From positions 1-19,362 of IMG/VR virus record IMGVR_UViG_2695420739_000013: 19,362 nucleotides of DNA. The stretch is one strand, 5' to 3'. Below, piece after piece: positions 120 through 19,362 of the stretch (positions are counted from its first letter, which is position 1; each line of letters begins with the position of its first letter). This DNA is from a virus. Its lineage: Duplodnaviria > Heunggongvirae > Uroviricota > Caudoviricetes. The notes under the pieces are model-generated. The model worked only from the letters and a program-made list of their open reading frames with translations. It had not been told where the DNA came from and searched no databases. Position numbers and translations under genes: made by a program.

Positions 120-140
120 CGGGCGGTAATACCACCGCCC
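113..140 (-). terminator. Rho-independent terminator downstream of potD
   Basis: Seen in sequence: hairpin GGGCGGT-aatacc-ACCGCCC at 121-140, followed on the minus strand by a U-run (A-run 114-119 on plus), 11 bp after the potD stop. Confidence 0.6.
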
Positions 141-150
141 GCTTGCTGAA

Positions 151-2149: not shown

Positions 2150-2154
2150 GTTTG

Positions 2155-3273
2155 TCAAATAACCAACTTAACCCATTCCTGACCTCGGGTATCGTTATAG
2201 CGATCGGTGGTTGCCTGGACTTTATGTCCTAGTAAGGTTTTTGTATCGATACCCTGTGCACGGTACAGCCGTTCAGATAGAGAGCGTTGTTCATGAAATG
2301 TGGGCGGTGTTTTTCCTGCTGGTGGAATTATTCCAGCCAGATCCCGCGCTTTGGCAAAGTAGTCGCTCAGGTTGTCTTTACTCATCGGCTTTGGTTGTTT
2401 CTGGTGCCGACTATGGATTAGATATGGACTTAATATTCTGTCTCGGCATCCATCAATAACGTCTTTTAACGTTATCCCAATGGCATCACAGCGTAGTGTA
2501 AGCGGTAACGCCAGACGCATTCCGGTTTTTCCCTGGGTGATATGCAAGTGTTCGTTCCACACATCTGAAAAACGCATGTGGCAAATGTCATCACGGCGCT
2601 GACCAGTGACAATCGCAAGAAGCATTGCGTTACGGATAAAGTGTTTTTCCGGCGTTGCGTTGTAAATTTTTTGCCAGTCTTCCAGGGCGAGCCTGGCTCT
2701 GGTTACTTTAGGGATCGGTTTACGGGTAGCCTCCGGAGGATTCCATCCAGGAGGAACTTCCCCTGCATGTTGTGCTTCTTTATAAATATCAACCCATAAT
2801 CCGCGATTTACTCTCGCTGTGCTGACCATGTCTTTATCCAGCCATTCATCCAGTATTAATGCAAAGTCTCTTACTTCCAGGTCTTTCAATGGGTGATTTC
2901 CCAGGCGGGAAACCAGGTATGCAGCCATTCGAGTTTTTTCTTTGTGAGTTGTAGCTGCAATATCTCCATTTTTCAGTCGCGTGTCCTGTATTTTCAGATA
3001 TCGATCAACCCACGCCTTTAATCTGATACCCCGACGTTTTGTTGCTGACGGACTTTCATCAATTTTGCGCATGAAATATTCAGCTTCTGCTGCAGCTATC
3101 CGCTGATTGGCTGTGGAAGCGATTTTTTCTGCCTTACCTTTGTCTGTTCCGAGTCCGTGAAATTTTCCAGTCACAGGATTTTTATACTGGTAGTAAACTC
3201 TGCCAGTTCTGCGATCAAACTTTTCGTAAAGACCGGCTACGTCAGTGCTGTTTTTTCGTGGCCTCGGTGACAT
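2155..3273 (-). CDS. int: Lambda-family tyrosine integrase
   Basis: 372 aa. C-terminal catalytic region (..LAIVTGQRRDDICHMRFSDV.., ..PPTFHEQRSLSERLY.., ..TTDRYNDTRGQEWVKLVI) lines up with lambda Int including the catalytic Tyr context (established family knowledge). Sits next to the host junction. Confidence 0.9.
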   Translation of the reverse strand: MSPRPRKNSTDVAGLYEKFDRRTGRVYYQYKNPVTGKFHGLGTDKGKAEKIASTANQRIAAAEAEYFMRKIDESPSATKRRGIRLKAWVDRYLKIQDTRLKNGDIAATTHKEKTRMAAYLVSRLGNHPLKDLEVRDFALILDEWLDKDMVSTARVNRGLWVDIYKEAQHAGEVPPGWNPPEATRKPIPKVTRARLALEDWQKIYNATPEKHFIRNAMLLAIVTGQRRDDICHMRFSDVWNEHLHITQGKTGMRLALPLTLRCDAIGITLKDVIDGCRDRILSPYLIHSRHQKQPKPMSKDNLSDYFAKARDLAGIIPPAGKTPPTFHEQRSLSERLYRAQGIDTKTLLGHKVQATTDRYNDTRGQEWVKLVI

Positions 3274-3520
3274 GAGTTAAAATCTCCTTCAGTGCATCAT
3301 CATCGCCAGTATGAATTTCCGGCGCAATTCCCGTTTCACCAGGCCCAACAAATACTGCTCGGCGATCTATCAGCCAACGCCCACGAATTTTTTGTGGTCT
3401 TGGAACGATGTATCCTAGTTTTCCGTATTTCACCAGGGTAGTGTTTGTTATTGGGAGACTGAACCGTTTTGGTTTCCACTCGTCGAGCGTTATCAGGTAC
3501 TGTTCGCTCATGGCTATCAC
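3242..3520 (-). CDS. xis: Excisionase (Xis-like); true start probably the internal Met at 3511
   Basis: Small basic ORF directly upstream of int and overlapping its start. YLITLDEW...RGRWLIDRRAV resembles lambda Xis (YLTLQEW...VRRWVRE). Confidence 0.75.
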   Translation of the reverse strand: MIAMSEQYLITLDEWKPKRFSLPITNTTLVKYGKLGYIVPRPQKIRGRWLIDRRAVFVGPGETGIAPEIHTGDDDALKEILTHVTEATKKQH

Positions 3521-3572
3521 TCCGGAACGCGCCAGTTGCAGAATATCAACGACAACTGGCGACGGTTGAACA

Positions 3573-6047: not shown

Positions 6048-6142
6048 TTTGTTTTAACCTCATTACAGATTTCAGGGTGAACGAATCCCTGCCATTGCTG
6101 GCATTTTTAATCCGTTGGTATGGTGTTAATATGGCTGGAGGG

Positions 6143-6331
6143 TTATCCAGCCGGTGTTTCGTTATTCAGGTACAGCGATACTTTTTTTACCGGGAGGCAT
6201 TCACCAGAAATTTTTTGCTCGTCTCTTGCCTGGAGGCAGGATTCTTTACTGGCATAAATTCTGGTAATCACATTCTGTGATTCACCCGTTATAAGAAAAA
6301 CCGTCATCATCAGTGCAAATGCTGAAGTCAT
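6143..6331 (-). CDS. Small protein translationally coupled downstream of dicB (YdfD-like by position)
   Basis: 62-aa ORF whose ATG overlaps the dicB stop (ATGA). The YdfD assignment is by synteny with the K-12 Qin dicB operon only; the sequence itself was not recognised with confidence. Confidence 0.45.
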   Translation of the reverse strand: MTSAFALMMTVFLITGESQNVITRIYASKESCLQARDEQKISGECLPVKKVSLYLNNETPAG

Positions 6332-6516
6332 TGACGTTCTCCGAAAATACCAAGTTCAAGAAGAGCAATTCGGGAAAGTATGGAATTATCATTGAGCAGA
6401 TAAGGCTCATATTTCCTCATATTAATGGCATCTTCAGTAAACTCCCGGTTACTGAGCAGAACACCAATATCAAAACAACCTTCAGACGTATTAACGTTTG
6501 GTAATAACGTTTCCAT
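6328..6516 (-). CDS. dicB: Cell division inhibitor DicB (MinC-activating)
   Basis: Internal Met of the 97-aa track ORF gives 62 aa, METLLPNVNTSEGCFDIGVLLSNREFTEDAINMRK..., matching my recollection of K-12 DicB (MKTLLPNVNTSEGCFEIGV...). GAGGA Shine-Dalgarno 7 nt upstream. Lies directly downstream of dicF. Confidence 0.75.
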   Translation of the reverse strand: METLLPNVNTSEGCFDIGVLLSNREFTEDAINMRKYEPYLLNDNSILSRIALLELGIFGERQ

Positions 6517-6534
6517 TATCGCGTCCTCAACAAT

Positions 6535-6680
6535 GAATTTTGTGATGCGGTGCCTGGTGCCTCCAGGTGACGTTAACCAGTTAACAATTAACGCCGGATA
6601 CAGAGAATCCACCCATAACACTGTTTTTGGTTTTAACTGTTCCGCGTGCGCTCAGCCGCATTCACCGCATCACAAAATTC
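6535..6680. repeat. 18-19-bp perfect inverted repeat (6535-6552 GAATTTTGTGATGCGGTG / 6663-6680 CACCGCATCACAAAATTC) enclosing ~110 bp between dicF and dicB
   Basis: Seen in sequence. In the minus-strand dicB-operon transcript the arms would form a long-range stem immediately 3' of dicF. Confidence 0.6.
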
Positions 6681-6687
6681 ACTTTAA

Positions 6688-6743
6688 AAACGGCGGCAGA
6701 GCAGTCACGGAGTAAAACTGATACCGCCAAACGTCACCAGAAA
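6688..6743 (-). ncRNA. dicF: DicF small RNA (ftsZ-repressing sRNA of the dicB operon)
   Basis: The minus-strand sequence UUUCUGGUGACGUUUGGCGGUAUCAGUUUUACUCCGUGACUGCUCUGCCGCCG followed by U-run matches the K-12 DicF sequence as I recall it, differing at about one position. Confidence 0.75.
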
Positions 6744-7019
6744 ATTGATAACAGAGGGCGTTGCAGCGGGGTTGTCACTTAAGCGTATGGTCAACCTGAC
6801 AACCCGGTGTCCTCAACGGGGGAAGGAATAACCCCGCCATACTTACCGCCGCGCCATTTCGCGGGTTGCCACAACCGGAAGCGCACGGTCGAATTAAATT
6901 TAACGACACCGTACAGTGAGACGAACTTCGCCGTGCGCTTTCGTGTTGTGTGCCTGCTTTTAACCACGTCAGGCGAGGTGGTATCCTTCTTATCCCGAAT
7001 AACCAAGAAGGAAATCTAT

Positions 7020-7220
7020 ATGACTAAAGAAGAATTTGTCTCTTATATTTTTGATAAAACGGTTGAAATGTATGCCGCTACTTACGGGTCCTGTAATCCT
7101 CTGAATAAACCAGAGGGGAAAGATGATTTCGACAAAATTTACCGCTTCTTGGAGGACCGCTATATCAAAAGGTTAGAGGACGCAGGGATCAAATCCCCAG
7201 TGAAGTCACCATTGTCCTGA
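7020..7220 (+). CDS. Hypothetical small protein (66 aa), antisense to the dicB-operon direction
   Basis: ATG preceded by AAGGAAA 8 nt upstream; protein-like composition. It is convergent with, and overlaps by 32 bp, the 3' end of the minus-strand ORF 7189-7566, so only one of the two may be real. Confidence 0.3.
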   Translation: MTKEEFVSYIFDKTVEMYAATYGSCNPLNKPEGKDDFDKIYRFLEDRYIKRLEDAGIKSPVKSPLS

Positions 7221-7566
7221 GAACTTGCAGGACGTCATGATCGTAACTTCCATCCAAACCGCGACGGCAAATTGCTTCTCGTATTACCGGAAGCAGTTCG
7301 CTGGAAATCTCGGTGCATATTTCACCTGATAATACGCTTGGCTCAAGTGAGAATATTGGTGAACTTACGGTCTTGGTCTCGACAGTTTCAGAGTCAGTGC
7401 CAACATTATAAAGCTCAACGAAAGCGGTCTTGATTTTCCGGGCCAGATCTTTTGCTGGCTCGCTTGCAATATCTTTCCCGATTTCTCGCAGCACAGAATG
7501 CAATGTATGAGCTGCTGTTTTCTGTACATCAGACGGTAAATCTTTAAATTCCATCGTCAGCCTCAT
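7189..7566 (-). CDS. Hypothetical prophage early protein (dicB-operon position)
   Basis: 125-aa ORF coupled to the upstream ORF (ATGA overlap). No motif recognised. Confidence 0.5.
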   Translation of the reverse strand: MRLTMEFKDLPSDVQKTAAHTLHSVLREIGKDIASEPAKDLARKIKTAFVELYNVGTDSETVETKTVSSPIFSLEPSVLSGEICTEISSELLPVIREAICRRGLDGSYDHDVLQVLRTMVTSLGI

Positions 7567-7811
7567 CAGTCAGTGTTTCTGGCTAACCAGCAACGCGCGC
7601 CAGATCCGGTTTTAAACGTTTTGCTTTTGGTATATGTCATCGCGGTGAACGTACCGCCCTGGTTGGGGAACACGCCGTACACCAGAGATTCGTTGTTGCC
7701 AAGATCGATAGTATCCATGTTGACCTCATTTCCCCTTAACGCCGGGGTAGCGGAACTGTTTGCTGAGAACACCGTGCGGTGTCTTGATGGATCGTAATTT
7801 AGTTTTCTCAT
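7566..7811 (-). CDS. Hypothetical prophage early protein, first gene downstream of the repressor
   Basis: 81-aa ORF. Its start lies within an operator-like inverted repeat. No motif recognised. Confidence 0.5.
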   Translation of the reverse strand: MRKLNYDPSRHRTVFSANSSATPALRGNEVNMDTIDLGNNESLVYGVFPNQGGTFTAMTYTKSKTFKTGSGARCWLARNTD

Positions 7812-7846
7812 GAATATTGGTCAAGTGCTTTTAATGAGAAAACTCA
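7802..7846. promoter_or_regulatory. Operator-like inverted repeat (AGTTTTCTCA ... TGAGAAAACTCA) in the promoter region between the repressor gene and the early operon
   Basis: Seen in sequence: 10-bp arms 7802-7811 and 7835-7846 share the TGAGAAAACTCA motif also found at 8368-8381. Confidence 0.35.
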
Positions 7847-7909
7847 ATATTTAATGCAAAATAAAGCCAATACATTGAAATGTAAGGCTTTAAAATTTGT
7901 GAAGGGGGG

Positions 7910-8317
7910 TTATTGATGTTTGTTACGTTTGCGAGCTTCTAGTAGCTCGGTGAATAGGCGATTAAAATTCTCAACGCGGGCACGGAGTTCGCTGATTTGT
8001 GCTTGCTGCTCTGATTTTGGAAGTGCGCGATACAATCGCAACATCTCCAACTCATCTTCCGATAAGTCTAAGGCGCTGTTGAGTGCAACTGGTGGATCTG
8101 GTGTTTTATCCTCGTCACCAAACAGTATCCAAGTTGGTGAACATTGCAATACCTCAGCCAGGCGATGCAAATTTTGCCCGCGCGGGGCTGTATGGTCGCT
8201 TTCCCATAGTGAAATTGATGAGCCAGATACGCCAGCAGCTTTGCTTAAATCGTTTTGACTTAAACCAACCTGTTTGCGTCTTTCTCTAATTCGTTGACCT
8301 AAAGTTTTCTCGTTCAT
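7910..8317 (-). CDS. dicA: DicA-like HTH (XRE-family) prophage repressor
   Basis: 135 aa with an N-terminal HTH (GQRIRERRKQVGLSQNDLSKAAGVS). ..LQCSPTWILFGDEDK.. and the C-terminal ..RARVENFNRLFTELL.. closely match my recollection of K-12 DicA. Confidence 0.85.
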   Translation of the reverse strand: MNEKTLGQRIRERRKQVGLSQNDLSKAAGVSGSSISLWESDHTAPRGQNLHRLAEVLQCSPTWILFGDEDKTPDPPVALNSALDLSEDELEMLRLYRALPKSEQQAQISELRARVENFNRLFTELLEARKRNKHQ

Positions 8318-8367
8318 ATTTAGATATCTTAATAACCCTTGACTTGAGATTCCTTGAGTGATTACTA

Positions 8368-8381
8368 TTGAGAAAACTCAA
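8368..8381. promoter_or_regulatory. Operator-like palindrome TTGAGAAAACTCAA in the repressor/cro divergent intergenic region
   Basis: Seen in sequence: TTGAG-N4-CTCAA. Additional TTGAG half-sites at 8344 and 8355, and a TTGACT -35-like hexamer nearby. Confidence 0.35.
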
Positions 8382-8394
8382 CTTTGGAGGGGTG

Positions 8395-8622
8395 ATGTTT
8401 AAATCAGACGTAATTAATTTTTATGGGACGAAAGCCAAAGTAGCGAAAGCTGCTGGTGTTGATCCATCTGCTGTTTCTCAATGGGGGGAACTGGTTCCTG
8501 AAGGTCGCGCGATGCGCCTGCAAGAGGCATCCGGCGGGGAACTTCAGTACGACCCCAAAGTTTATGACGAATATCGTAAGGCAAAGCGGGCGGGGCGGTT
8601 GAACAATGAAAATCACCCCTGA
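8395..8622 (+). CDS. Cro-like regulator (DicC/YdaS family), divergent from the repressor
   Basis: ATG at 8395 with a GGAGGGG Shine-Dalgarno; the track ORF starts at TTG 8368. Small protein in the Cro position relative to the DicA-like gene. The family assignment is mostly positional. Confidence 0.7.
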   Translation: MFKSDVINFYGTKAKVAKAAGVDPSAVSQWGELVPEGRAMRLQEASGGELQYDPKVYDEYRKAKRAGRLNNENHP

Positions 8623-9157
8623 ACAGGTTTGTGAGGCTCTGGATGCCTGGGTATGCCGACCAGGAATGACACAGGAGCAGGCGACGATATTAATCACGGA
8701 AGCATTCTGGGCTCTGAAAGAACGCCCGAACATCGATGTTCAACGCGTCACGTTTAATGATGGCGAGGTTGATCAACGGGCGCTGGGCGTTAACCGGGTG
8801 AAGATATTCGAACGCTGGAAAGCTATCGACACCAGGGATAAGCGGAAAAAATTCACGGCGCTGATTCCGGCAATTATGGAGGCTATCCGAATTAGTGATT
8901 TCAGGCTGTATCGTGAGATCAGTGATGGAAAAAGCATTACGTACATGATCGCCGGATTAAACAAAGAATATGGCGATGTGGTGGAGTCCGGGCTGCTTTT
9001 TGCGGATCCAGCTGTTGTGGAACGTGAGACTGACGAGCTTATAGAAAAAGCTATTGCTTTCAAGCATGCGTATCGTCAGCAATATCAATATTACTTTGCA
9101 GATAAACAAATGTCTGCCAGGGGTTCGTATGAGTATCGATGCACTACGATGGGCTAA
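8606..9157 (+). CDS. YdaT-like prophage protein
   Basis: 183 aa immediately after the Cro-like gene. ..FTALIPAIMEAIRISDFR.. resembles the Rac YdaT segment I recall (..ALLPAILAIAPNDLR..). Low-certainty family call. Confidence 0.6.
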   Translation: MKITPEQVCEALDAWVCRPGMTQEQATILITEAFWALKERPNIDVQRVTFNDGEVDQRALGVNRVKIFERWKAIDTRDKRKKFTALIPAIMEAIRISDFRLYREISDGKSITYMIAGLNKEYGDVVESGLLFADPAVVERETDELIEKAIAFKHAYRQQYQYYFADKQMSARGSYEYRCTTMG

Positions 9158-10160
9158 AAAGGTGAAAACCGGCAGTTCATCCAGTAAGTCAGTATTGACC
9201 TGGCTTGCTGATATGTGCGGTGCCGATTTGTGTGCATACCCGTCTGTATCTGCCCTGGCAGAAGTAACGGAACTGAACAAAAAGACAGTGCAGGACAGCT
9301 TACGACACCTGATGGAGATTGGGTTAATTGTTGATACCGGTGAGAGAAAAGGCAGAACAAAGCAAATTGTGGTGTACCGACTTATCGGTGTAGAAGAAAG
9401 TGTTGCCGAGCCTGAATACACCCAAAAACGGGAGTCTTTAAAGGTGGGTAAAATTGGTGCTGTTAATAAAAACAGTACCGAAAATGGTTATGTTTCAGCA
9501 CAAAACAGACCCAAAAACGGAACTCTTAGCTGCATGGAAAATAACCAAAGACACCCAAATTTTCCATCAAAGACACCCAAAAACGGATCACGGAACCCAA
9601 AGGAACCCAAAGTTCTAAACCCCACACATAACGCACGCGAGAGTGCTCTGACCAGTGAGCAGGAAGTTTTGTCGTTACAGGCAGTATTCCTGGATGGCCT
9701 GAGAGAACCCATCGGAAAATTTCTGATGACCGATAGCTGGCATCCGTCGCGGGATTTTCGACGACGGGCTGCGTTGTGGGGGATGGCTTTGCCGGAGCCG
9801 GAATTTACACCTGCTGAACTTGCCGCATTCCGGGATTACTGGAGTGATGAGGGGAAAGTGTTTACGCAGATTCAGTGGGAGCAGAAATTCGCCCGTCACG
9901 TAAATCACGTCAGGGCGCAGGTTAAACCAGTCAGCAAGGGGGTGAACCATGCAGCAGCACCAGGGGGCACCGCATCACGGGCAGTTCAGGAAATTCGGGC
10001 AGCACGTGAGCAGTGGGAACGTGAAAACGGATTTATCCGCGACGGAAACGGCGTGGAAGCTGTGGGAACTCATGGGGGAGGTTTATTCGAACCGCTGGAC
10101 CCAGAAGAACGGGGCCGCACCTTCGAAGCTCTGGATTGCACAGATTGGTGCGATGACTGA
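9129..10160 (+). CDS. Replication initiation protein (lambda O-like N-terminal HTH, DnaT-like C-terminal region)
   Basis: Likely start MSIDALRWAKK at 9129; the track ORF starts at 9054 inside the upstream gene. N-terminal winged HTH (..SVSALAEVTELNKKTVQDSLRHLMEIGLI..). Iteron-like repeats lie inside the gene. Confidence 0.75.
   Translation: MSIDALRWAKKVKTGSSSSKSVLTWLADMCGADLCAYPSVSALAEVTELNKKTVQDSLRHLMEIGLIVDTGERKGRTKQIVVYRLIGVEESVAEPEYTQKRESLKVGKIGAVNKNSTENGYVSAQNRPKNGTLSCMENNQRHPNFPSKTPKNGSRNPKEPKVLNPTHNARESALTSEQEVLSLQAVFLDGLREPIGKFLMTDSWHPSRDFRRRAALWGMALPEPEFTPAELAAFRDYWSDEGKVFTQIQWEQKFARHVNHVRAQVKPVSKGVNHAAAPGGTASRAVQEIRAAREQWERENGFIRDGNGVEAVGTHGGGLFEPLDPEERGRTFEALDCTDWCDD
9421..9615 (+). 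repeat. Iteron-like direct repeats (ACCCAAAAACGG and variants, at least 5 copies) inside the replication-initiator gene; putative phage origin
   Basis: Seen in sequence: cccaaaaacgg (9421), acccaaaaacgg (9511), gacacccaaa (9551), gacacccaaaaacgg (9572), aacccaaagg and aacccaaag (9594-9613). Confidence 0.4.
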
Positions 10161-10614
10161 GCAGCAAATCCGACAGGTCTGCCGCCAGTGCATGGACCGC
10201 TGCCGGGAGGGTGAAACATGGCCTCCGGACCTGGCTGAGTTTGTGGCACTGATTTCGGAAAGCGGAGCCAATCCATTCGGTCTGACGGTGGATGCTGTGA
10301 TGGAGGAGTACCGCCGCTGGCGCAATGAGTCCTGGCGATACGACGGAAGTGATAAGTACCCGTGGTCTCAGCCTGTGCTGTATCACATTTGCCTCGAGAT
10401 GCGTTCAAAGGGGGTTGAGCGCCAGATGACCGAAGGGGAATTAAAACGGCTTGCAGAACGGCAGCTGACGAAATGGGCAAAGCATGTTAGTAACGGCCTG
10501 AGCGTTCCGCCAGTCCGGCGACAACTGGCGGCACCCAAACGCCCGTCGGGGCCAACGCCAATTGAGTTGCTGAAACAGGAATATGAACGCCGGAAAGCGG
10601 CTGGGCTTGTTTGA
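9949..10614 (+). CDS. Replication protein P-like (helicase-loader family); start uncertain (9949 or a downstream Met such as 10153)
   Basis: The C-terminal half (..PPDLAEFVALI.., ..YDGSDKYPWSQPVLYHIC.., ..EGELKRLAERQL..) parallels lambda P (..SPGQFVAWC.., ..YPDAESYPWKS.., ..DAELRRKAADEL..). The 5' ~210 bp overlap the O-like gene in another frame. Confidence 0.65.
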   Translation: MQQHQGAPHHGQFRKFGQHVSSGNVKTDLSATETAWKLWELMGEVYSNRWTQKNGAAPSKLWIAQIGAMTEQQIRQVCRQCMDRCREGETWPPDLAEFVALISESGANPFGLTVDAVMEEYRRWRNESWRYDGSDKYPWSQPVLYHICLEMRSKGVERQMTEGELKRLAERQLTKWAKHVSNGLSVPPVRRQLAAPKRPSGPTPIELLKQEYERRKAAGLV

Positions 10615-10720
10615 GTTGAGAAGTAATTTTTACCGGGAGGAAATTTATGGAGACTGTTTTTGACGCACTGAAAGCAATGGGAAAAGCCACATCCATAGAA
10701 CTTGCTGCGCGCGTGAAGAA

Positions 10721-10921
10721 GTGCTGAACGAACTATGGGAACTGAAAAAGGCTGGTTTTGTTGATAAAAGCGCGTACACCTGGCGTGTGGCTGATAACAA
10801 CGTTCAGCAGGAACAGCCAGCGCAGGCAGAACTGCCGGAAGAAACCACCACAATGAGTGAAGTTATGCAGCGCATACTGGCATTTTATCAGGGAAATGTT
10901 CGATATTTTAGACGTTACTAG
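10721..10921 (+). CDS. Hypothetical winged-helix-like small protein; possibly the 3' part of a frameshifted gene beginning at ATG 10647
   Basis: A 26-codon ORF (10647-10727, good GGGAGG Shine-Dalgarno) and this GTG-initiated ORF lie in different frames and join into one plausible ~92-aa protein across a -1 shift at 10719-10723. Confidence 0.35.
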
Positions 10922-11289
10922 ATTAAAGAGCATTAGTTCAGATGTGAATTGACATTGTGTGGCACAGGGTTGGGCTAGCGTGGGGGTTTGCTTTGTGTAA
11001 GAAACGGATGCTCTGCAAATTACTACTAATGCTTAATGTTAGTCTGATCTGCTCCCCGATGATTAATACACCGCTATGTTAGTAATGTCTGTAGATCGCT
11101 GTGTGTTGCATCCATCGGTTGACCCCACAGTCCAAACCAGACTGTCAGCTTTGATTCGATTCTATCTACTCAACCTGTCAGGTAATGTCTGAGCTAATAC
11201 ACAGAGTACGGCTATCGCGAACTTTAAGCTAGGTATCTGATACGCACCGTTCACTTGTTTGTACTTCTTGCACTGACTAGCTATCGTGC

Positions 11290-11322
11290 GCAGTTATTTA
11301 TAGGTAATCTCCAGTGTATAAT
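11290..11322 (+). promoter_or_regulatory. Candidate sigma70 promoter for the 281-aa island gene
   Basis: TATAAT at 11317-11322 with a weak -35 about 17 bp upstream, then AGGAGG and ATG at 11361. Pattern-based only. Confidence 0.3.
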
Positions 11323-11360
11323 TTTCCAACTTATGGGAGATTGTAAAACAGGAGGAATAT

Positions 11361-12206
11361 ATGAGGAAAAAATCGTTTGGACGTTGCCCGTTTGATTTCG
11401 ACGAAGATGTAAAAAAAATAGCCGCGATAAATAAATATATCCATGCGAAATTTGAGAGGCATAAAAATAAAATAGATAACCTAAAGGGGGTGGAACAAAA
11501 ATTGATGGTTTTACATTACTTTAATGTACTGAATGAACTTAGTAATCAGGCTATATTTTCTTTGAGTACCGGAGCCTTTTCAGCATCGGAAGTATTAACT
11601 AGAGTTATAATGGAACAGGCTGCCAATCAATTTTATATAGCAATTGATGATGGAAAAAATGCACAAGCATTACTCAAGGGTAGTAAGAAATTAGTTCATA
11701 GTAATGGGAAACGGTGGCTGGAGTGTTTAAAATCCAAAGAAATGACTAATCCAGCAGCAGATGAAAGGATTCGTATCGGAAAAGAGCTAACTGATATGTT
11801 TAATAGATTGTGGCCAAATACACCTGAATATCCTGGAACCAAAAAGCTTTTCGAAGTAATTGGCTGGGAAACACACTATCATGCCTATTACGTCCCTCTT
11901 TGTGATTCAATACATACATTCTCTGATGATATGGCAAATATAGTATCTCTATATAATGCAATCCAAAGCGATAAAACTACTGCTATCGAACTCACTCTTG
12001 CAGTTAAACAAGAAAATAAACGGCTGGCAATTTATAATGTCGTAATTGCTATTGGCCTGCGGTGTGAGGCCTTAGTAAATGTATTTAACTCTTTAGGTTA
12101 TCGAGATATTATAACTGAAATGGCGCCAACAATAGATGCAGTCAACCAGATTATAATTCGATATGATGATTTCGAACATTCCAGAATTTTTATTGTCAAT
12201 AATTAA
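11361..12206 (+). CDS. Hypothetical protein (281 aa), no recognisable catalytic motif; first gene of the AT-rich accessory island
   Basis: Long ORF with a perfect AGGAGG Shine-Dalgarno 7 nt upstream. Visibly AT-rich and Lys/Asn/Ile-rich, contrasting with the flanking prophage genes. Confidence 0.75.
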   Translation: MRKKSFGRCPFDFDEDVKKIAAINKYIHAKFERHKNKIDNLKGVEQKLMVLHYFNVLNELSNQAIFSLSTGAFSASEVLTRVIMEQAANQFYIAIDDGKNAQALLKGSKKLVHSNGKRWLECLKSKEMTNPAADERIRIGKELTDMFNRLWPNTPEYPGTKKLFEVIGWETHYHAYYVPLCDSIHTFSDDMANIVSLYNAIQSDKTTAIELTLAVKQENKRLAIYNVVIAIGLRCEALVNVFNSLGYRDIITEMAPTIDAVNQIIIRYDDFEHSRIFIVNN

Positions 12207-12259
12207 TTGGCAGAATTCGTACATGCACAACAACTAGTTATAGTTGACCTATTTCGCTC

Positions 12260-12828
12260 TTGAGAGACAACCATACTCAAATCTTCCACATTGCAGGAGA
12301 TTTGAGTATGAATACGTCACCGAGGAACAAAGACAGTATCATAGGCCCAAAAAGACCACTTCAGATATCTCATATCTGGGGGCTCCAAATCCGGCTTGAA
12401 CTGGAAGGTAAAACGCGTGATTTAGCTCGGTTTCAAGCAGAGCTACGGTGCTGCAACTGAAAAACTGGCAGTCCTATCCAATTTGAGATAACCAAAGGGA
12501 CAAGAGAAGCTGTTTCTGCATTGATAAAGCTTGGCAATTTACGCAGTAAAGACTACTTGTTCCGATCTCGGGTCGGTACTAACCAACACATATCAATCCT
12601 GCAATATAACCGAATCTTTCATAGGGGGGAGAAAAGCTTGGTCTCGAAGATTCGCTTTACAGCACACATTCCATGAGAAGAACAAAACCTTGCCTTGTCT
12701 GCAAGAAAACTAAGAATCTCCGGGTGATCCAACTTCCGTTGGGCCATAAGAAAACGGAAAGCACAGTTCGTTATCTGGGTATAGAAGTTGATGATGCATT
12801 AGAGATCTCTGAATCGATCGAAGTCTAA
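12260..12828 (+). pseudogene. Decayed tyrosine recombinase/integrase: C-terminal catalytic domain only, with an in-frame TGA and a frameshift
   Basis: The stitched translation ..KTGSPIQFEITKGTREAVSAL..DYLFRSRVGTNQHISILQYNRIFHRG/GEKLGLEDSLYSTHSMRRTKP..LGHKKTESTVRYLGIEVDDAL.. carries the H-x-x-R and LLGH...Y motifs of tyrosine recombinases. Stop at 12458-12460; frame change within a G6 run at 12624-12629; no N-terminal domain. Confidence 0.6.
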
Positions 12829-13240
12829 AGCTGTCAGGGCTGCAGCAGCAGCCCTGTGCCAAGAGCGTACCAATATATGTCTCAAAAAATTGGGCACAGG
12901 TCAATATCAATACCAACAACTCTGATTGTGCTCATGTGATTTACTCCTGTAGAAAACGCAGACAGTAAAAATATTTCACTGGCTGCTTCAGACAGGGCGT
13001 CCATCATATCATTACATAACAATAGCGGGGCACGATATCTAGACATGCAGCAACGATGGACATAGAATGAGTACAATCAAAAGCATGTTTAACTACTTTA
13101 ATTTAAAAATCTTAGAATCTTAGGTGTAGAGTTCAATACTTAGTTACATACCCTTTTGAAAGCATCACAAATCATAACTATGAGCCTGTTAAAGGCATAG
13201 GTATTCTTAATTAAGAGCATTTTAATGAGAGAAAAATAAA

Positions 13241-14614
13241 ATGAAAAGACTATATTATACCCATCATGATAGTCGAACCTTAAAACTTGCTATAGAAGGT
13301 GATGTTTCTGATAATGCGAATATTTTTACAGTAATTGTAGGTAAAAATGGCGTTGGAAAAAGCAGATTGTTATCTCAGATTGCTAAAGACTGTATTCAAG
13401 ATGTTCATTTCTTGAAAACTTTTAATCCATTATTTGACAGAGAAATAACACCAAAGTTAATTGCCGTATCTACCAGCCCATTCGATAAATTCCCTCCAGG
13501 GCGTAGGTCATTAAATCACCAAAGGAAAGAAAATAATTATCGCTATGTGGGTATGCGTGGAGAAGGCCCCTTCGGCGTATCAAATGCCGTATCCCTTTTA
13601 TCTTCAGCAGCGAGAGGTTGGCTAGAGAAACTTGCTTATTCAGAAAATCCTGCAAATTTACTCGATGTTTTTCATTCTATTGATTTTGAGCCCCATATAG
13701 AGTTTGTATTTAAACCAACTTACAACGGACCGGACACTCCTGACTATAACTTCATTGGTGTATATTCAGATGAGATATTAACGGAAGTTAAGGAGTTATA
13801 TTTAAAATACAATATAAAAATTGACAGGAAGAATATTGAGAGTCTCTTAAAGTTAAACTCCGAATCACGTCATGATATTTACGAAGCACTGGTTGAAATT
13901 AATCGATTTGAACCTGAACGTAGGGCTGTAACCTTGTCAGTCGATTTTACCAATGGTGAAACATTGGTTGGCTCGACTTATGCGAATAATTATTTTTCTA
14001 GATCAATTCTTAAACTTATGAACGCTGGCTTCATGAGATTGATGGATATGCGACTCATAAAAAAAAGCTATGGTCCCATGTCACTTAAACGTGCGAGCTC
14101 GGGAGAACAATGTTTATTAGTGATGTTGCTTGGAATTGCAGGGCATATAACTGATGGTTCTATAATATTAATTGATGAACCGGAAATAAGCTTGCATCCT
14201 CGATGGCAGGAAGAGTTTATCATTATGTTAACAAAAGCATTTTTAACTTACTCAGGTTGTCAATTCATAATTGCAACTCATTCACCACAAATAATATCCA
14301 ATTTGCCGAATAAAGGTTGTTATATAACATCTTTGTCGAAAAGTTATCTTTATAAAGCAAAATACTTTAGCAACCGGTCTGCAGACTATCAACTTGCGGA
14401 ACTATTTGATGCCCCTGGCATTATGAATGAATACATTGCCAGGTTAGCTTTCAATTTACTTTCAAAAGTTAAGACTGCTAAGTTAGTAACAGATGATAAT
14501 TGGCGTGAATTAAAACAACTCCAACTTCTCCTTGAAAACGTTAATAGTAATGACCCTATTAATGAACTCGTAAATTCCGTATCTCAGGTGTGTGAAATTT
14601 ATGCCAAAAATTAA
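13241..14614 (+). CDS. ABC-type (AAA_15/AAA_21-like) ATPase, Septu PtuA-like
   Basis: 457 aa. Walker A GKNGVGKS (residues 34-41), ABC-signature-like SSGEQ, Walker B IILIDEPE, D-loop SLHP, H-loop ATHSP. AT-rich. Its 3' end overlaps the following HNH gene. Confidence 0.85.
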   Translation: MKRLYYTHHDSRTLKLAIEGDVSDNANIFTVIVGKNGVGKSRLLSQIAKDCIQDVHFLKTFNPLFDREITPKLIAVSTSPFDKFPPGRRSLNHQRKENNYRYVGMRGEGPFGVSNAVSLLSSAARGWLEKLAYSENPANLLDVFHSIDFEPHIEFVFKPTYNGPDTPDYNFIGVYSDEILTEVKELYLKYNIKIDRKNIESLLKLNSESRHDIYEALVEINRFEPERRAVTLSVDFTNGETLVGSTYANNYFSRSILKLMNAGFMRLMDMRLIKKSYGPMSLKRASSGEQCLLVMLLGIAGHITDGSIILIDEPEISLHPRWQEEFIIMLTKAFLTYSGCQFIIATHSPQIISNLPNKGCYITSLSKSYLYKAKYFSNRSADYQLAELFDAPGIMNEYIARLAFNLLSKVKTAKLVTDDNWRELKQLQLLLENVNSNDPINELVNSVSQVCEIYAKN

Positions 14615-15236
14615 AAATCCAATTAGATTCAGCGCAGAGTCATTAGATATTATTGAGAAAAAATTGTCTTCTCCAGATTTTAAGCATACCAACTGGGGAG
14701 ATGATGATTTGCAAGTTCTCCGTGCAGAAATTAGAAATCATTACAGAGAAGAACAAAAGCTAGAATGTGTATATTGTCATGAGCCTATTGGGGTAAGAGC
14801 TGCACAAGCTGCTCCTATAGAGCATATTGTGCCAAAATCTCAATATCTATGTTTTATTTTTGAACCTAAGAATCTATGTGTAGTATGTCCTGACTGCAAT
14901 GAATTCAAAGGTAAAAATGAAGTGTTATTTGAACCCGTAATAAATGGGGGGCGGCGCAAAAACTATCCAACTGCATCTGCATCATTTCGCATCGTTCATC
15001 CACATATAGATGATTATGAGATGCATATTATAAAAGCAAATCGTGTTTATGTGGACAAAACACCTAAAGGGCACTATACCATTGGAATATGTAAACTAAA
15101 TAGATTTTTTCATTATTTTGGGATGTGTGATGAATTTGTTAATGATGCAAAAATTGCTGAGACAAATGAAAATTTTTTCAAAAAAGGTAGTATTACTACT
15201 AATGAATTATTGGATGATGACATTCATTTGATTTAA
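14601..15236 (+). CDS. HNH endonuclease, Septu PtuB-like
   Basis: ATG at 14601 (track ORF from GTG 14592) overlaps the ATPase gene by 14 bp. HNH-type motifs CVYCH...EHIVPKS...CVVCPDCN (two CxxC pairs flanking the catalytic His). Confidence 0.85.
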   Translation: MPKIKNPIRFSAESLDIIEKKLSSPDFKHTNWGDDDLQVLRAEIRNHYREEQKLECVYCHEPIGVRAAQAAPIEHIVPKSQYLCFIFEPKNLCVVCPDCNEFKGKNEVLFEPVINGGRRKNYPTASASFRIVHPHIDDYEMHIIKANRVYVDKTPKGHYTIGICKLNRFFHYFGMCDEFVNDAKIAETNENFFKKGSITTNELLDDDIHLI

Positions 15237-15549
15237 CTATGAATTATTATATTGTAAAGTAATCAGGTAAGATATGTTAGACAGTGAGACTATTGCCTTA
15301 CAGAATTCATTATTCTTATGGATCGCCTTTCTGACTGATTTCATATTGGCGGGGTAACGGGAGTTAAGTAGAATGGCTGCGGGTGCTTGAGGCTATCTGT
15401 CTCAGGCATGAACACCAAAGGCAGATAGAGAAAAGCCCCAGTTAACATTACGCGTCCTGCAAGACGCTTAACATTAATCTGAGGCCAATTTCATGCTAGA
15501 CACATGTAGGTTAGCCTCTTACGTGCCGGAAGGCAAGGAGAAGCAGGCT

Positions 15550-15705
15550 ATGAAGCAGCAAAAGGCGATGTTAATCGCCCTGATCGTCATCTGTTTAACC
15601 GTCATAGTGACGACACTGGTAACGAGGAAAGACCTCTGCGAGGTACGAATCCGAACCGGCCAGACGGAGGTCGCTGTCTTCACAGCTTACGAACCTGAGG
15701 AGTAA
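15550..15705 (+). CDS. hokD: Hok/Gef-family type I toxin (HokD/RelF-like), 51 aa
   Basis: MKQQKAMLIALIVICLTVIVTTLVTRKDLCEVRIRTGQTEVAVFTAYEPEE matches K-12 HokD as I recall it, differing at about one residue. The in-frame upstream extension from 15493 is what the ORF track reports as 70 aa. Confidence 0.85.
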   Translation: MKQQKAMLIALIVICLTVIVTTLVTRKDLCEVRIRTGQTEVAVFTAYEPEE

Positions 15706-15774
15706 GAGACCCGGCGAGGGAGAAATCCCTCGCCACCTCTGATGTGGCAGGCATCCTCAACGCACCCGCACTTA

Positions 15775-15805
15775 ACCCGCTTCGGCGGGTTTTTGTTTTT
15801 ATTTT
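15775..15805 (+). terminator. Rho-independent terminator downstream of hok
   Basis: Seen in sequence: CCCGC-ttcg-GCGGG followed by TTTTTGTTTTTATTTT. Confidence 0.5.
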
Positions 15806-15921
15806 CAACGCGTTTGAAGTTCTGGACGGCGCCGGAATAGAATCAAAAATACTTAAGTAGCGCGCAGGGATAAGAGGGATGGTCCCTTAAAGGGGAGAGC
15901 TAATTATCCGGAAGGATTCTG

Positions 15922-16173
15922 ATGATGAACATCGAAGAACTGCGTAAAATTTTTTGTGAAGATGGCCTCTATGCTGTGTGCGTTGAAAATGGAAATCTTG
16001 TTAGTCATTACCGCATTATGTGTTTGCGAAAGAATGGGGCTGCGTTAATTAATTTTGTGGATGGTCGAGTGACAGACGGATTTATCTTGCGCGAAGGTGA
16101 GTTTGTCACTTCATTACAGGCACTGAAAGAGATCGGAATAAAAGCAGGCTTTTCAGCTTTTGCAGAAGAATAA
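15922..16173 (+). CDS. Small prophage protein, Rem-like by position (Qin order hokD-rem-ydfU)
   Basis: 83-aa ORF with a GGAAGGA Shine-Dalgarno. The assignment rests on size and synteny, not on confident sequence recognition. Confidence 0.55.
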   Translation: MMNIEELRKIFCEDGLYAVCVENGNLVSHYRIMCLRKNGAALINFVDGRVTDGFILREGEFVTSLQALKEIGIKAGFSAFAEE

Positions 16174-16239
16174 ACTCATCTACAATCTTGCGCGGGGCTG
16201 AACTCCCGCTGAGTAACACCGTGCCACCGGAGAAAACCG

Positions 16240-16518
16240 ATGGCACGCAACGTAAAATATTACAATTCTGATAATTCGCCCGTTCTTGCCTGCACGCACG
16301 AGCGGTATTCTCACGCATTCAAGTCTGAATGGTTCCAACACCCTCCATGTACTGAAGAGCAGGCTGAATGGATAATTCAGTGTTACCGCAGGCGCGGATA
16401 CGAGGTTAAGAAAGCCCTTAGTCTCGACTACCGTCACTGGATAATCTCCGTCAGGCTTCCTTACTCTGAACGCCCACCGCGTCCGTCTCGCACATTCCAG
16501 CAACGCATCTGGAGGTAA
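16240..16518 (+). CDS. Hypothetical prophage protein (92 aa)
   Basis: ORF with a GGAG Shine-Dalgarno, directly abutting the downstream DUF968 gene. No motif recognised. Confidence 0.45.
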   Translation: MARNVKYYNSDNSPVLACTHERYSHAFKSEWFQHPPCTEEQAEWIIQCYRRRGYEVKKALSLDYRHWIISVRLPYSERPPRPSRTFQQRIWR

Positions 16519-16519
16519 C

Positions 16520-17569
16520 GTGCGGGTATTACTTCGACCTGTTCTGGTACCGGAACTCGGGCTGGTGATCGTTAAGCCGGGCCGTGAATCCATGCCAGTA
16601 TTCCACAATACCCGGGTATTGATGGAGCCGGAACCGAAAAGCATGCGTAATCTGCCGTCCGGGGTCGTTCCTGCCGTTCGCCAGCCGCTGGAGGAAGACA
16701 AAACATTGCTGCCGTTTTTCAGTAACGCACGGGTGATTCGTGCTGCTGGTGGTGCAGGTGCATTGTCTGACTGGCTGTTGCGCCATATTAAATCCTGCCA
16801 GTGGCCACACGGCGATTATCATCACAGCGAAACTGTCATTCACCGTTATGGTACCGGCGCAATGGTGTTGTGCTGGCACTGCGACAACCAGCTGCGTGAC
16901 CAGACATCCGAATCACTCGAGCAACTTGCTCATCAAAACCTGTCAGCATGGATGATTGACGTCATCGGTCACGCAATAAGCGGTACGCAGGAGCGTGAAT
17001 TATCTTTGGCTGAATTATCCTGGTGGGCGGTCCGCAATCAGGTGGCGGACGCGCTACCGGAAGCGGTATTACGTCGTTCGCTGGGGGTGCGTGCGGAAAA
17101 AATCCGCTCAATGTACCGTGAAAGCGACATCGTGCCGGGAGAGCAGACCGCCACCAGCATACTGAAGCAGCGCACAAAAAATATTGCGTTACTGCCTGAC
17201 GTCCACCAGCAACAGAACCCACCACAGGAAAAGACGGTGGTCAGCATTGCCGTTGATCCTGAGTCTCCGGAATCTTTCATGAAACGACCTAAACGTCGCC
17301 GCTGGGTTAACGAGAAATACACACGCTGGGTGAAGACTCAGCCGTGTGCGTGTTGTGGTAAGCCAGCCGACGATCCCCATCACCTGATTGGTCATGGTCA
17401 GGGCGGAATGGGGACAAAATCTCACGATATTTTCACGCTACCGCTGTGTCGGGAGCATCACAACGAGCTTCATGCGGATCCGCTGGCGTTCGAAGAAAAG
17501 CATGGCTCTCAGGTTGATTTAATTTTTCGTTTTCTTGATCACGCCTTTGCAACTGGCGTGCTTGGGTAA
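16520..17569 (+). CDS. DUF968-family prophage protein (YdfU-like) with a C-terminal Cys/His-rich HNH-like region
   Basis: 349 aa, GTG start. C-terminus ..CACCGKPADDPHHLIGHG...LPLCREHHNELH.. Position upstream of rusA and Q matches Qin-type prophages. Confidence 0.7.
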   Translation: MRVLLRPVLVPELGLVIVKPGRESMPVFHNTRVLMEPEPKSMRNLPSGVVPAVRQPLEEDKTLLPFFSNARVIRAAGGAGALSDWLLRHIKSCQWPHGDYHHSETVIHRYGTGAMVLCWHCDNQLRDQTSESLEQLAHQNLSAWMIDVIGHAISGTQERELSLAELSWWAVRNQVADALPEAVLRRSLGVRAEKIRSMYRESDIVPGEQTATSILKQRTKNIALLPDVHQQQNPPQEKTVVSIAVDPESPESFMKRPKRRRWVNEKYTRWVKTQPCACCGKPADDPHHLIGHGQGGMGTKSHDIFTLPLCREHHNELHADPLAFEEKHGSQVDLIFRFLDHAFATGVLG

Positions 17570-17581
17570 AAGAGGTGACTG

Positions 17582-17953
17582 ATGCTCATAGATTTGGTTT
17601 TACCTTACCCGCCGACGGTGAACACTTACTGGCGACGCCGTGGCAGCACATATTTTATCTCGGAGGAGGGAAAGCGTTATCGCCGGGCTGTGGCGCTTAT
17701 TGTTCGCCAGCAGCGGCTGAAATTAAGCCTGTCCGGAAGGCTGGCGATAAAGGTGATTGCAGAGCCACCGGATAAGCGCCGTCGTGACCTGGACAATATC
17801 CTGAAAGCACCACTGGATGCGCTGACGCATGCCGAACTTCTCATAGACGACGAGCAGTTTGATGAAATCAATATTGTGCGCGGTCAGCTCGTTCCTGGTG
17901 GGCGACTGGGCGTGAAGATTTACGAAATCACAGGTGATAACGATGGCGCGTGA
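17582..17953 (+). CDS. rusA: Holliday-junction resolvase RusA
   Basis: 123 aa. ..[19 protein letters not shown].. and the overall pattern match RusA (K-12 has ..DRRRRDLDNLQKAAFDALT..). Confidence 0.85.
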
Positions 17954-18329
17954 TATTCAGCAGGTTATGGAACGGTGGGGGGCTTGGGCTGCAAACACTC
18001 ATGAAGATGTATCCTGGGCGTCGATCGCTGCTGGTTTTAAAGGGTTAATTCCGTCGAAAGTGAAATCACGTCCTCAGTGTTCTGATGATGATGCAATGAT
18101 AATTTGTGGCTGTATGGCCCGGTTAAACAAGAAAAATCAGGATTTGCACGATTTGCTGGTGGATTATTACGTATATGGAATGACTTTTATGAGTCTGGCA
18201 CGGAAACTTGGATGTTCGGATACCTGTGTTGGTAAGCGCCTGCAGAAGGCGGAAGGGGTTATCGATGGCATGTTGATGATGCTTGATATCCGGCTGGAGA
18301 TGGACAGATATGTAGAACGAATTATGTAG
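17943..18329 (+). CDS. Late-gene antiterminator Q (QuuD/phage-21-type)
   Basis: Start at ATG 17943 overlapping the rusA stop (track ORF from GTG 17934). [35 protein letters not shown]...[18 protein letters not shown]... closely matches K-12 QuuD as I recall it. Confidence 0.8.
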
Positions 18330-18334
18330 GTGCT

Positions 18335-18364
18335 TGACCATATACATTGTCCGGGGCTATATTC
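18335..18364 (+). promoter_or_regulatory. Candidate Q-dependent late promoter (pR'-like)
   Basis: TTGACC at 18335-18340, an 18-bp spacer, then TATATT at 18359-18364, immediately downstream of Q. Confidence 0.45.
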
Positions 18365-18425
18365 CTCGCGCGTCAGCAAAATCTGGCGTCGGGATTGGAA
18401 CCCCGGATATTCAACCGCGACAGAC

Positions 18426-18450
18426 ACACGCCGCGAGCGTGTTTTTTATT
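18426..18450 (+). terminator. tR'-like intrinsic terminator ending a short leader transcript (Q antitermination target)
   Basis: Seen in sequence: ACACGC-cgcga-GCGTGT then TTTTTTATT, about 60-80 nt downstream of the candidate late promoter. Confidence 0.5.
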
Positions 18451-18611
18451 GTCGTAAGCACACGCACATCTGAATAATGGTGGGGCGTATGGGGGAGCTG
18501 AAAGGCTCGCCGGTTGGTTGATCCGGTAGTTCCAACCCTGTACGTCTCACCACCCAATGATTGGAACCTGACGGTGGTGATAGTTAAATCCATCAACCAG
18601 AGGGCGTTATC

Positions 18612-19172
18612 ATGACGACTCAAGTTTCTGTCGAAACTCTTTCCCCGATCACACACAACCAGCTCCCAGTTGTCACTACAGAGTTACTGGCCAAACTATA
18701 TGGCTGTAGCGTCGAGTGTATTCATAGAAATCACCACCGTAATAAAGAGCGATTTGCAGAAGGGAAGCACTACATAATTGCGAAAGGCGCAGACCTCCAA
18801 AATTTGAAAATCTCTTTAAGGGATTTTCAAACGATCGCCCCAAATGTCCGAAAGCTCATACTCTGGACAGAACGCGGAGCAGCCCGTCACGCCAAAATGC
18901 TCGAAACCGATCAGGCGTGGGAAGTATTCGAAAAACTGGAAGACTGTTATTTCAACCAAAAACAACCACCAGCGGCACAAAACACATCTATCGAAAATGA
19001 TGGATGCGCATTACTGATCCACTTCGATAAACATGGTCAGGTTGAGTTCACGGAAAAGGTGCCCGCCGATGCGATGGTATGCACTCTGGAACGGTTTAAA
19101 TTTTATCTGGAGCAACACGGGTGGATCGTTGCCCGTAAAGAGCAACTGGTGGAGCGGTTGATGCGGCTTTAA
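18612..19172 (+). CDS. Hypothetical protein in the Q-proximal moron position; possible ORF6N/KilA-N-like N-terminal DNA-binding domain (weak)
   Basis: 186-aa ORF with a GAGGG Shine-Dalgarno, followed by an intrinsic terminator. The family guess comes from a loose N-terminal pattern only. Confidence 0.65.
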   Translation: MTTQVSVETLSPITHNQLPVVTTELLAKLYGCSVECIHRNHHRNKERFAEGKHYIIAKGADLQNLKISLRDFQTIAPNVRKLILWTERGAARHAKMLETDQAWEVFEKLEDCYFNQKQPPAAQNTSIENDGCALLIHFDKHGQVEFTEKVPADAMVCTLERFKFYLEQHGWIVARKEQLVERLMRL

Positions 19173-19247
19173 AAATTTCCCCCGAACGCTTTACGATCGT
19201 AAAAAGTTGAATATACTGTTAAGAGTGGTTACTACGCCGCACAGCTT

Positions 19248-19273
19248 AAACCCGCCGATGAGCGGGTTTTTTT
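19248..19273 (+). terminator. Rho-independent terminator after the 186-aa gene
   Basis: Seen in sequence: AAACCCGC-cgatga-GCGGGTTT followed by a 7-T run. Confidence 0.55.
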
Positions 19274-19362
19274 GTGCACAGAAAACCCCCAGCTAGGCTG
19301 GGGGTTCCGGAAAGCTTTCAGCTTTGAGCCAGTTATTAAAACCCCTTTTGATTTGTTAAAAC
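19268..19362. repeat. Right copy of the 95-bp perfect inverted repeat (partner 25-119); truncated by the window end
   Basis: Seen in sequence: exact reverse complement of 25-119. The match reaches the final base of the window, so the repeat may be longer. Confidence 0.85.

Follow-up and report, generated by a model that had tools for sequence, protein, structure and literature searches.

The 19,362-nucleotide stretch of viral DNA analysed here, called the window as a whole (positions 1 to 19,362 of IMG/VR record IMGVR_UViG_2695420739_000013), is a Rac-like lambdoid prophage inserted beside potC and potD. It is 100% identical to Escherichia coli Z1322HEC0003 over the compared stretches and nearly identical to enteropathogenic E. 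coli (EPEC) E2348/69. At 12309-12828 on the plus strand it carries the remnant of a small tyrosine recombinase gene, with a DUF5677 gene upstream and a Septu anti-phage system downstream. We consider it rather probable that this remnant is the dead recombinase of a system that swaps cargo cassettes at two classes of site, A and B, and that the cargo of the window has been left frozen. A wider proposition is that the intact family provides the enzyme dedicated to a naturally occurring exchange system with two kinds of site, moving defence and accessory genes among P2-like phages, lambdoid (Rac- and Qin-type) prophages, island arrays and plasmids of Gamma- and Betaproteobacteria, with the window as its fossil; on the comparison of related loci we hold this to be evenly balanced. 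The pseudogene alone is ordinary and already flagged in RefSeq. The comparative data give a concrete and testable mechanism together with a candidate enzyme.

The two site classes emerged from the surroundings of the recombinase gene. When the flanks of about 95 copies were compared for the ends of the unit, homology between contexts was seen to extend only some 55 base pairs (bp) ahead of the ATG and some 45 bp past the stop codon, and the ends carry GTCCGCT and AGCGGAC. A scan of the loci revealed complete 24-bp palindromes of the form GTCCGCT-N10-AGCGGAC, with inverted arms of 7-9 bp. They fall into two classes: type A reads GTCCGCT yy GTGCCA rn AGCGGAC, with the core GTGCCA, and type B reads GTCCGCT cy TCGCTC an AGCGGAC, with the core TCGCTC. 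Altogether, 276 kb of enterobacterial loci contain 53 such sites, against 0.2 in dinucleotide shuffles, and 50 of the 53 are co-oriented A or B sites. They are intergenic and follow one another in the order A, cargo, B, about 18 bp, then A, cargo, B. This order is independent of the strand of the cargo, which is minus in L104 and plus in L101 (L numbers denote the compared loci). We had also considered AACGTCCGCT...AGCGGACGTT as the terminal inverted repeats of a 0.7-kb element resembling an insertion sequence (IS), a candidate that was dropped given the 24-bp palindromes of two classes throughout the loci. What borders the gene on either side is a half-site, each belonging to a different site.

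Within these arrays the recombinase gene keeps a fixed place. It lies between the left half of a B site and an A half-site, in the orientation of the array and never inside an A..B cassette, and at each of the 18 enterobacterial recombinase loci A/B sites lie no more than 8 kb away. Rac hotspots that lack the recombinase still show the arrangement A-cargo-B (L004, L101, L104). The same holds further afield: in phage P2 a type-A site (15335-15358) follows gene G and a B-like site precedes FI, on either side of fun(Z), and the A pattern is matched exactly by at least 120 contigs of IMG/VR, with a co-oriented B site following 0.9-4 kb downstream in most of the 80 that were examined.

Cassettes bounded by A and B are identical from end to end in otherwise unrelated surroundings. 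Among 107 A..B intervals there are 24 pairs whose interiors match at 98.5-100% over the whole length and whose 400-bp outer flanks are unrelated. One 984-bp cassette sits in P2-type (L147), Rac-type (L123, L130, L162) and array (L196) contexts, and cassettes of 1917 bp and 1150 bp from L003 and L109 recur in other platforms. At the A sites of such shared cassettes, the sequence to the left of the core (the arm and the adjoining two bases) goes with the platform, and that to its right (two bases and the arm) goes with the cassette; at B sites the pattern is reversed. Among 339 sites, columns 8-9 and 16-17 are informative on this point. Pairs of A sites that share only the left flank show differences at columns 8-9 in 5-8% of cases and at columns 16-17 in 56-57%; for pairs that share only the right flank, the corresponding figures are 52-76% and 0-33%. 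The columns of B sites behave in the same way. Linkage thus switches within the 6-bp core, between columns 9 and 16, which is where a tyrosine recombinase would be expected to exchange strands.

That the recombinase family acts on the A/B sites is well supported by comparison, through the position of the gene, its orientation and the switch of linkage in the core, and we infer such an activity on this basis. A cassette would run from an A site through the cargo to a B site, with the recombinase gene at the junction between cassettes. As the cores differ, only A-with-A and B-with-B exchange would be possible, and a cassette could be swapped between any two platforms that carry both sites, or be excised and inserted within arrays. 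The platforms seen are the G/FI hotspot of P2, the DUF977-hokD hotspot of Rac and Qin, arrays in genomic islands, and plasmids.

Several observations weigh against a working role for the recombinase in these exchanges. The gene is present in only two of the 80 viral A-site contigs examined and missing from the other 78, and only about 14% of complete E. coli genomes have any copy. The half-sites of the recombinase unit itself are degenerate (AAGGGAC; GCAGCCCT). Around family members of about 60% identity, flanking palindromes are seldom recognisable by the patterns used, and the A-half motif follows just 20 of 77 copies (distant members). A generic palindrome search around these distant homologues found few sites, so that the sites can be called general only within Enterobacterales and some Pseudomonas. 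Just four site columns are informative, which leaves them compatible with short-homology recombination on 24-bp repeats, and in the window no B site is recognisable before hokD, at the right junction of the Septu cassette, where the alignment is poor. If the recombinase acts at all, it does so rarely or in trans.

The scarcity of the gene, both in viral contigs with A/B sites and in E. coli genomes, together with its lack of a core-binding domain, would suit a reading in which it is a passenger or selfish gene at cassette junctions, and in which host XerC/XerD, a prophage integrase or another protein recombines A and B. We regard this as unlikely. Recombinases of about 200 amino acids can be active, as FimB and FimE illustrate, and the family has a sub-threshold NCBIfam match to the DNA invertases. 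A passenger would not be expected always to sit, in array orientation, with a B left half on one side and an A right half on the other, outside every cassette, nor to have sites nearby in 18 of 18 enterobacterial loci. The A/B sites are also unlike dif (GGTGCGCATAA-TGTATA-TTATGTTAAAT; PMC10132070).

Exchange without any site-specific enzyme is harder still to reconcile with the data. The palindromes might be structural or regulatory, such as terminators or elements of the repetitive extragenic palindromic (REP) type, and the swaps might be due to short-homology recombination by RecET, Red or RecA. Rac-type and lambda-type phages do encode short-homology recombinases, and the small number of columns informative on the crossover position is in keeping with this idea. 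We judge it quite improbable, since the sites form two discrete core classes whose order and orientation stay the same irrespective of cargo direction (L104, L101), and since linkage switches between columns 9 and 16 and not across the arms. In their geometry the sites correspond to the core site of a tyrosine recombinase, and a recombinase gene is embedded among the sites. Having no T-tract, the A/B sites are not intrinsic terminators.

The protein family to which the candidate enzyme belongs is large and compact. A protein search returned at least 8000 relatives, which among the matches listed are non-truncated and 200-203 amino acids long, and all homologues listed contain PF00589. Identity within the family is 76-96% across Enterobacterales, Proteus/Providencia, Idiomarina and Pseudoalteromonas, thus including marine Gammaproteobacteria, and about 60% for relatives in Pseudomonas and Betaproteobacteria. 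In an alignment of 20 family sequences R51, K79, H148, R151, H174 and Y183 are invariant. A search of the PDB with the single recombinase sequence gave no match; with a profile of the family, only Xer catalytic domains were matched, namely residues 131-278 of XerD (E=1.8e-7), XerC-like proteins, XerA and XerH. NCBIfam scores stay far below every Xer and invertase cut-off, with 58 bits against 220 for XerA, 50 against 335 for XerC, and a weak match (8e-6) to a tyrosine-type DNA invertase. The family therefore falls outside the XerC, XerD and XerA equivalogs, for which a two-domain form of about 300 amino acids is expected and which have the core-binding domain that is absent here. It also falls outside the integrases of the lambda Int, P2 Int and SXT Int type, as only the catalytic domain aligns and no flanking direct repeats were found. 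The preliminary description of the window had noticed the missing N-terminal domain, rightly, and had listed it with the signs of decay; since the family is 200-203 amino acids long and aligns only to the catalytic domain, this absence is native and no truncation. Tandem, co-oriented recombinase genes 3-4 kb apart with cargo between them occur in L022 (8001, 11856), L029 (1225, 3956) and L066 (8001, 11745), the second copy in L029 being frameshifted. We found no paper on the 200-residue family or on the two core classes in the literature searched, the coverage of which was incomplete.

In the window, the pseudogene lies in a hotspot for variable cargo. A block at about 11000-15500 has a G+C content (GC) of 32-43%, against 49-57% in the phage backbone. 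The flanks are common to related prophages, on the left as far as about 10855 (the DUF977/DUF1627 end) and on the right starting at about 15310-15360 (hokD, rem). The cargo enclosed by them is quite different, comprising RelA/SpoT, HEPN, Kiwa, QueH, LysE/DUF1989, Paa or RelBE, and it is this variety within shared flanks that marks the region as a cargo hotspot. According to the mechanism proposed above, the window would be a Rac-type hotspot with two cassettes, DUF5677 and Septu, and the recombinase unit between them.

The first of these, on the plus strand at 11044-12252 (GC 35-40%), contains a DUF5677 gene (coding sequence 11361-12206; Pfam E=3.4e-9), and it is to this upstream gene that the recombinase is most tightly linked. 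Both are contiguous, at about 90% nucleotide identity, in a P2-type prophage hotspot between the tail-fibre assembly and tail sheath genes of strain EC69 (L010; DUF5677 at 7338-8180). The L010 homology to the DUF5677 block, likewise about 90% identical, begins directly after an intact A site. The B site between DUF5677 and the recombinase is degenerate in both the window and L010, and the two genes may have become one fused cassette or a functional pair. A preprint lists DUF5677 among candidate defence genes associated with recombinases. An intact recombinase copy with other cargo occupies the same Rac hotspot in strain DETEC-P169 (L003; WP_023147793.1).

The second cassette, at 12871-15310 on the plus strand, holds a complete anti-phage system, Septu type I, in which the gene for the PtuA ATPase (13241-14614) is followed by the overlapping gene for the PtuB HNH nuclease (14592-15236). 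PADLOC recovers PtuA over its full length (1.2e-165) and PtuB (1.1e-83), and Pfam adds AAA_21 and HNH. This PtuAB DNA is found in only 19 complete E. coli genomes, always at this prophage locus, and searches of E. coli genomes, plasmids, phages and the compared loci gave no close homologue elsewhere.

These surroundings bear on the suggestion in the preliminary description that an inactivated integrase beside a defence-like pair marks a formerly mobile module, whose cargo came on its own integrative element. The recombinase is indeed inactive and adjoins Septu, and its place directly upstream of PtuAB in a low-GC insert would fit the remnant of an integrase that delivered the pair and then decayed. 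We nevertheless find such an origin very improbable. Arm-binding and core-binding domains are natively absent from the family, and a repeat scan detected neither att-like direct repeats around the gene and PtuAB nor a tRNA target. In another phage (L010) the gene is inherited together with DUF5677 and not with PtuAB, and the combination with PtuAB is found nowhere else. The prophage's own lambda-type integrase is encoded elsewhere, at 2155-3273. The arrival on a separate integrative element has thus lost its footing, and the gene would instead be that of a cassette junction.

The identity of the pseudogene itself is not in doubt. Its fragments, which the preliminary description had stitched together by eye, are present across the three forward frames of 12200-12900, and the stitched translation places the gene in the tyrosine recombinase superfamily by matching PF00589 with 32.9 bits against a cut-off of 27.1 (E=6.8e-8). 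Homology searches yielded intact relatives: a 200-residue homologue aligns to the window copy by tblastn with E=1e-72, and one intact comparator, WP_001305361.1 (L002; 200 amino acids; found in FDAARGOS_536), is about 91% identical in its DNA. In RefSeq, the annotation pipeline PGAP labels the pseudogene of E. coli E2348/69 as "frameshifted; internal stop". The reading region runs from an ATG at 12309 to a TAA at 12826-12828 and encoded a Xer-like protein of the catalytic domain only.

Alignment of the window copy to intact copies shows that the gene is dead and how it was damaged. The largest lesion is an 82-bp deletion between TAGCTCTGTT direct repeats, seen in two alignments, which left a single copy of the TAGCTCkGTT microhomology at the junction (about 12423-12432), shifted the frame and removed residues of about 39-66, the catalytic Arg51 among them. 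A +1 insertion in the A-run at 12460-12464 returns the gene to its ancestral frame (intact CAACAGAAAACCGG, window CAACTGAAAAACTGG). The TGA at 12458-12460, created by an A-to-T change at 12458, is read only within the 30-odd out-of-frame bases between these two events. Further downstream, one base has been lost in the G6 run at 12624-12629, where most intact copies read GGGTGGG and L003 reads GGGGGGG; this -1 frameshift costs the codon of Trp134. His148, Arg151, His174 and Tyr183 are kept, and with Arg51 deleted and three insertions or deletions present, no single frame of the window copy holds the complete set R-K-H-x-x-R-H/W-Y. Seven family-invariant positions have been replaced (W6R, Q14P, R27Q, T124I, Y159C, L171P and L177T), so the copy has drifted for some time. 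The preliminary description had explained the decay by the TGA and the G6 run. Both exist at the positions it gave and the G6 frameshift is real, but the TGA is no simple nonsense mutation and the 82-bp deletion had been missed.

The same description allowed for a sequencing error in the homopolymer, a caution that does not survive comparison. Among complete E. coli assemblies, 17 contain a region of 701 bp with 99.9-100% identity and no gaps, another matches it at 98.3%, and with at least 18 assemblies, two independent ones of E2348/69 among them, carrying the same pseudogene sequence, such an error is excluded. An open reading frame that is intact or expressed, by way of an assembly error at the G-run, programmed frameshifting or readthrough, is effectively refuted: homopolymers (G6, A5) do stand at two of the three frame changes, yet the sequence is the same in all these assemblies, Arg51 is deleted whatever the frame, and seven invariant residues are replaced.

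An identical 82-bp deletion is present in a copy from the GDAR2-2 island (L011, at about 7170) that is otherwise nearly identical to the intact copy of L002. It arose separately there, in a copy 9% diverged from that of the window, and the repeats are a hotspot for microhomology deletion within the gene. A 102-bp probe on the deleted segment matches 774 places in E. coli genomes and a neighbouring control probe 793, and hence some 19 of about 793 recombinase copies lack the segment: the deletion is recurrent but rare. Decay in this part of the prophage extends beyond the recombinase, as RefSeq also records a frameshifted, truncated remnant in the DUF1627/DUF977-type gene that adjoins the hotspot on its left margin (window 10645-10860; L001 11447-11649).

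The sites of the window have eroded as well. When the window was tested for the order of A on the left and B on the right, a decayed A, a degenerate B and an A half-site were recognisable, and the terminal B was not found. At the left edge of the hotspot cargo, the type-A site GTTTGCTTTGTGTAAGAAACGGAT (10986-11009, plus strand) aligns column by column with the intact form GTCCGCTTTGTGCCAAGAGCGGAC and departs from it by six substitutions, spread evenly over the left arm, the core and the right arm with two apiece. Intact A sites occupy the matching position in the Rac-like loci L003 and L004 and in the P2-type L010. The six changes within 24 bp are mostly C-to-T or G-to-A, and the neighbouring platform DNA is well conserved; a decay so focused on the site may be chance, or an active site may have been selected against. 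On its left side the recombinase unit is bounded by a degenerate type-B site, GTTGACCTATTTCGCTCTTGAGAGAC (12243-12268, plus strand; core TCGCTC at 12254-12259), which matches GTCCACTCCTCGCTCATAAGGGAC upstream of intact copies and has the same degenerate form in L010. The right end (12835-12870, plus strand) consists of a 3' hairpin at 12835-12856 and a type-A half-site with the core GTGCCA at 12856-12861 and the right arm AGCGTAC at 12864-12870, which has one mismatch in the arm. Enterobacterial copies retain ...CCCTGTGCCAGAAGCGGAC downstream of their stop codon, and immediately beyond this sequence the similarity between contexts ceases. With the recombinase destroyed by the 82-bp deletion, two frameshifts and seven replacements at invariant positions, and its sites eroded, the cargo would have been left in place. 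As the recombinase and the three sites found are all eroded and a fourth site is missing, the Septu and DUF5677 cargo is probably fixed in the prophage and no longer exchangeable.

A further motif, TGGCACAGGG, lies about 27 nucleotides upstream of the platform A sites of the window (10960-10972, compared with 12849-12861), P2, L003, L004 and L010. It is an inverted copy of the A-site part CTGTGCCA, the same octamer also forming the end of the recombinase unit. An accessory arm and the relic of a site in inverse orientation are two conceivable explanations for it.

Upstream of the recombinase, a second hairpin (12272-12310, plus strand) pairs the Shine-Dalgarno (SD) sequence and the ATG with an anti-SD arm through a perfect 13-nucleotide inverted repeat (CATACTCAAATCT / AGATTTGAGTATG), with a predicted RNA folding energy of -24.4 kcal/mol (z=-5.6). 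In the 5' regions of the window and of L002-L100, 57 of 80 distinct 5' untranslated regions of the family have the SD fully paired, and the hairpin arms differ between lineages and stay complementary, that is, they covary. Such a hairpin would mask translation and limit it from read-through transcripts, possibly as in some insertion sequences. A scan for sigma-70 promoters near the recombinase gene gave nothing above shuffle expectation.

The proposed system can be compared with several known ones. Similar to integrons, it shows polar arrays of promoterless or short cassettes with imperfect palindromes between them, a tyrosine recombinase at a non-cassette position, and cargo rich in defence genes. 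IntI proteins measure about 320-340 amino acids, have a core-binding domain and an IntI-specific insertion, and recombine folded single-stranded attC sites. In contrast, the A/B system combines a protein of 200 residues with 24-bp sites, two cores and two sites per cassette instead of one attC, and we found here neither a match to any IntI model nor an integron integrase with attC. FimB/FimE-type recombinases and Xer catalytic domains resemble the family in size and in the catalytic-only form, the residues R-K-H-R-H-Y aligning to XerD 131-278. The A/B loci differ from the FimB/FimE type by the lack of an invertible segment and by sites in direct orientation, and the matches are far below cut-offs. 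A similar logic underlies engineered exchange with heterospecific lox or FRT sites, which have shared arms and incompatible spacers and allow double exchange without fusing replicons. These are laboratory designs for Cre and Flp, to which the A/B system would be a natural counterpart.

The pdif modules of Acinetobacter offer another parallel. There, too, cargo modules flanked by short sites with inverted arms and a 6-bp spacer are shuffled between replicons, and elements of the IS1202 family adjoin the sites. The pdif sites belong to the host Xer system, being XerC/XerD sites of the 11-6-11 form, whereas the A/B system has another site sequence, two core classes and a dedicated small recombinase gene embedded among its sites. 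The target of ISKpn65, listed as a poor dif-like site, ends in TTATGTCCGCT (PMC10132070, Table 8), which matches the left arm of the A/B sites, and ISEsa1/IS1202-family transposases sit in the Rac hotspot. The IS1202 family may thus target A/B sites as its relatives target pdif.

For P2 a precedent exists, as inverted repeats flanking fun(Z) in the 'TO' hotspot were reported in 2004 by Nilsson, Karlsson and Haggard-Ljungquist (Mol Biol Evol 21:1; doi 10.1093/molbev/msg223), as recounted in a passage of PMC8987985; exactly these A/B-type sites flank fun(Z). Surveys of P2 and P4 hotspots regard the movement of defence systems among phages, satellites, plasmids and islands as speculative or unexplained (PMC13586616; PMC9122126). 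If the two-site exchange proposed here is true, it would supply a mechanism for the turnover of defence hotspots that recent papers call unknown, and explain how phages, islands and plasmids trade defence genes. The A/B sites would also help in annotating prophages, as signals by which cargo and defence cassettes could be found.

The cargo linked to the family goes beyond defence. In marine Gammaproteobacteria (L012-L020), an identical protein of 200 amino acids occurs on 189 index blocks, the gene lying between arsenic-resistance and copper/silver-resistance blocks on a backbone resembling an integrative and conjugative element (ICE) or a plasmid (CobT/VWA, RadC, primase). Given these surroundings, the family is also tied to metal-resistance cargo. 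Finally, a Qin-type region with ydfW, flxA, ydfV, relBE and hokD (L102, 6232-7246) holds flxA-ydfV between inverted B and A sites and thus an inverted cassette; the same hotspot also has Kiwa, QueH and a truncated ISNCY/IS1202-family transposase.

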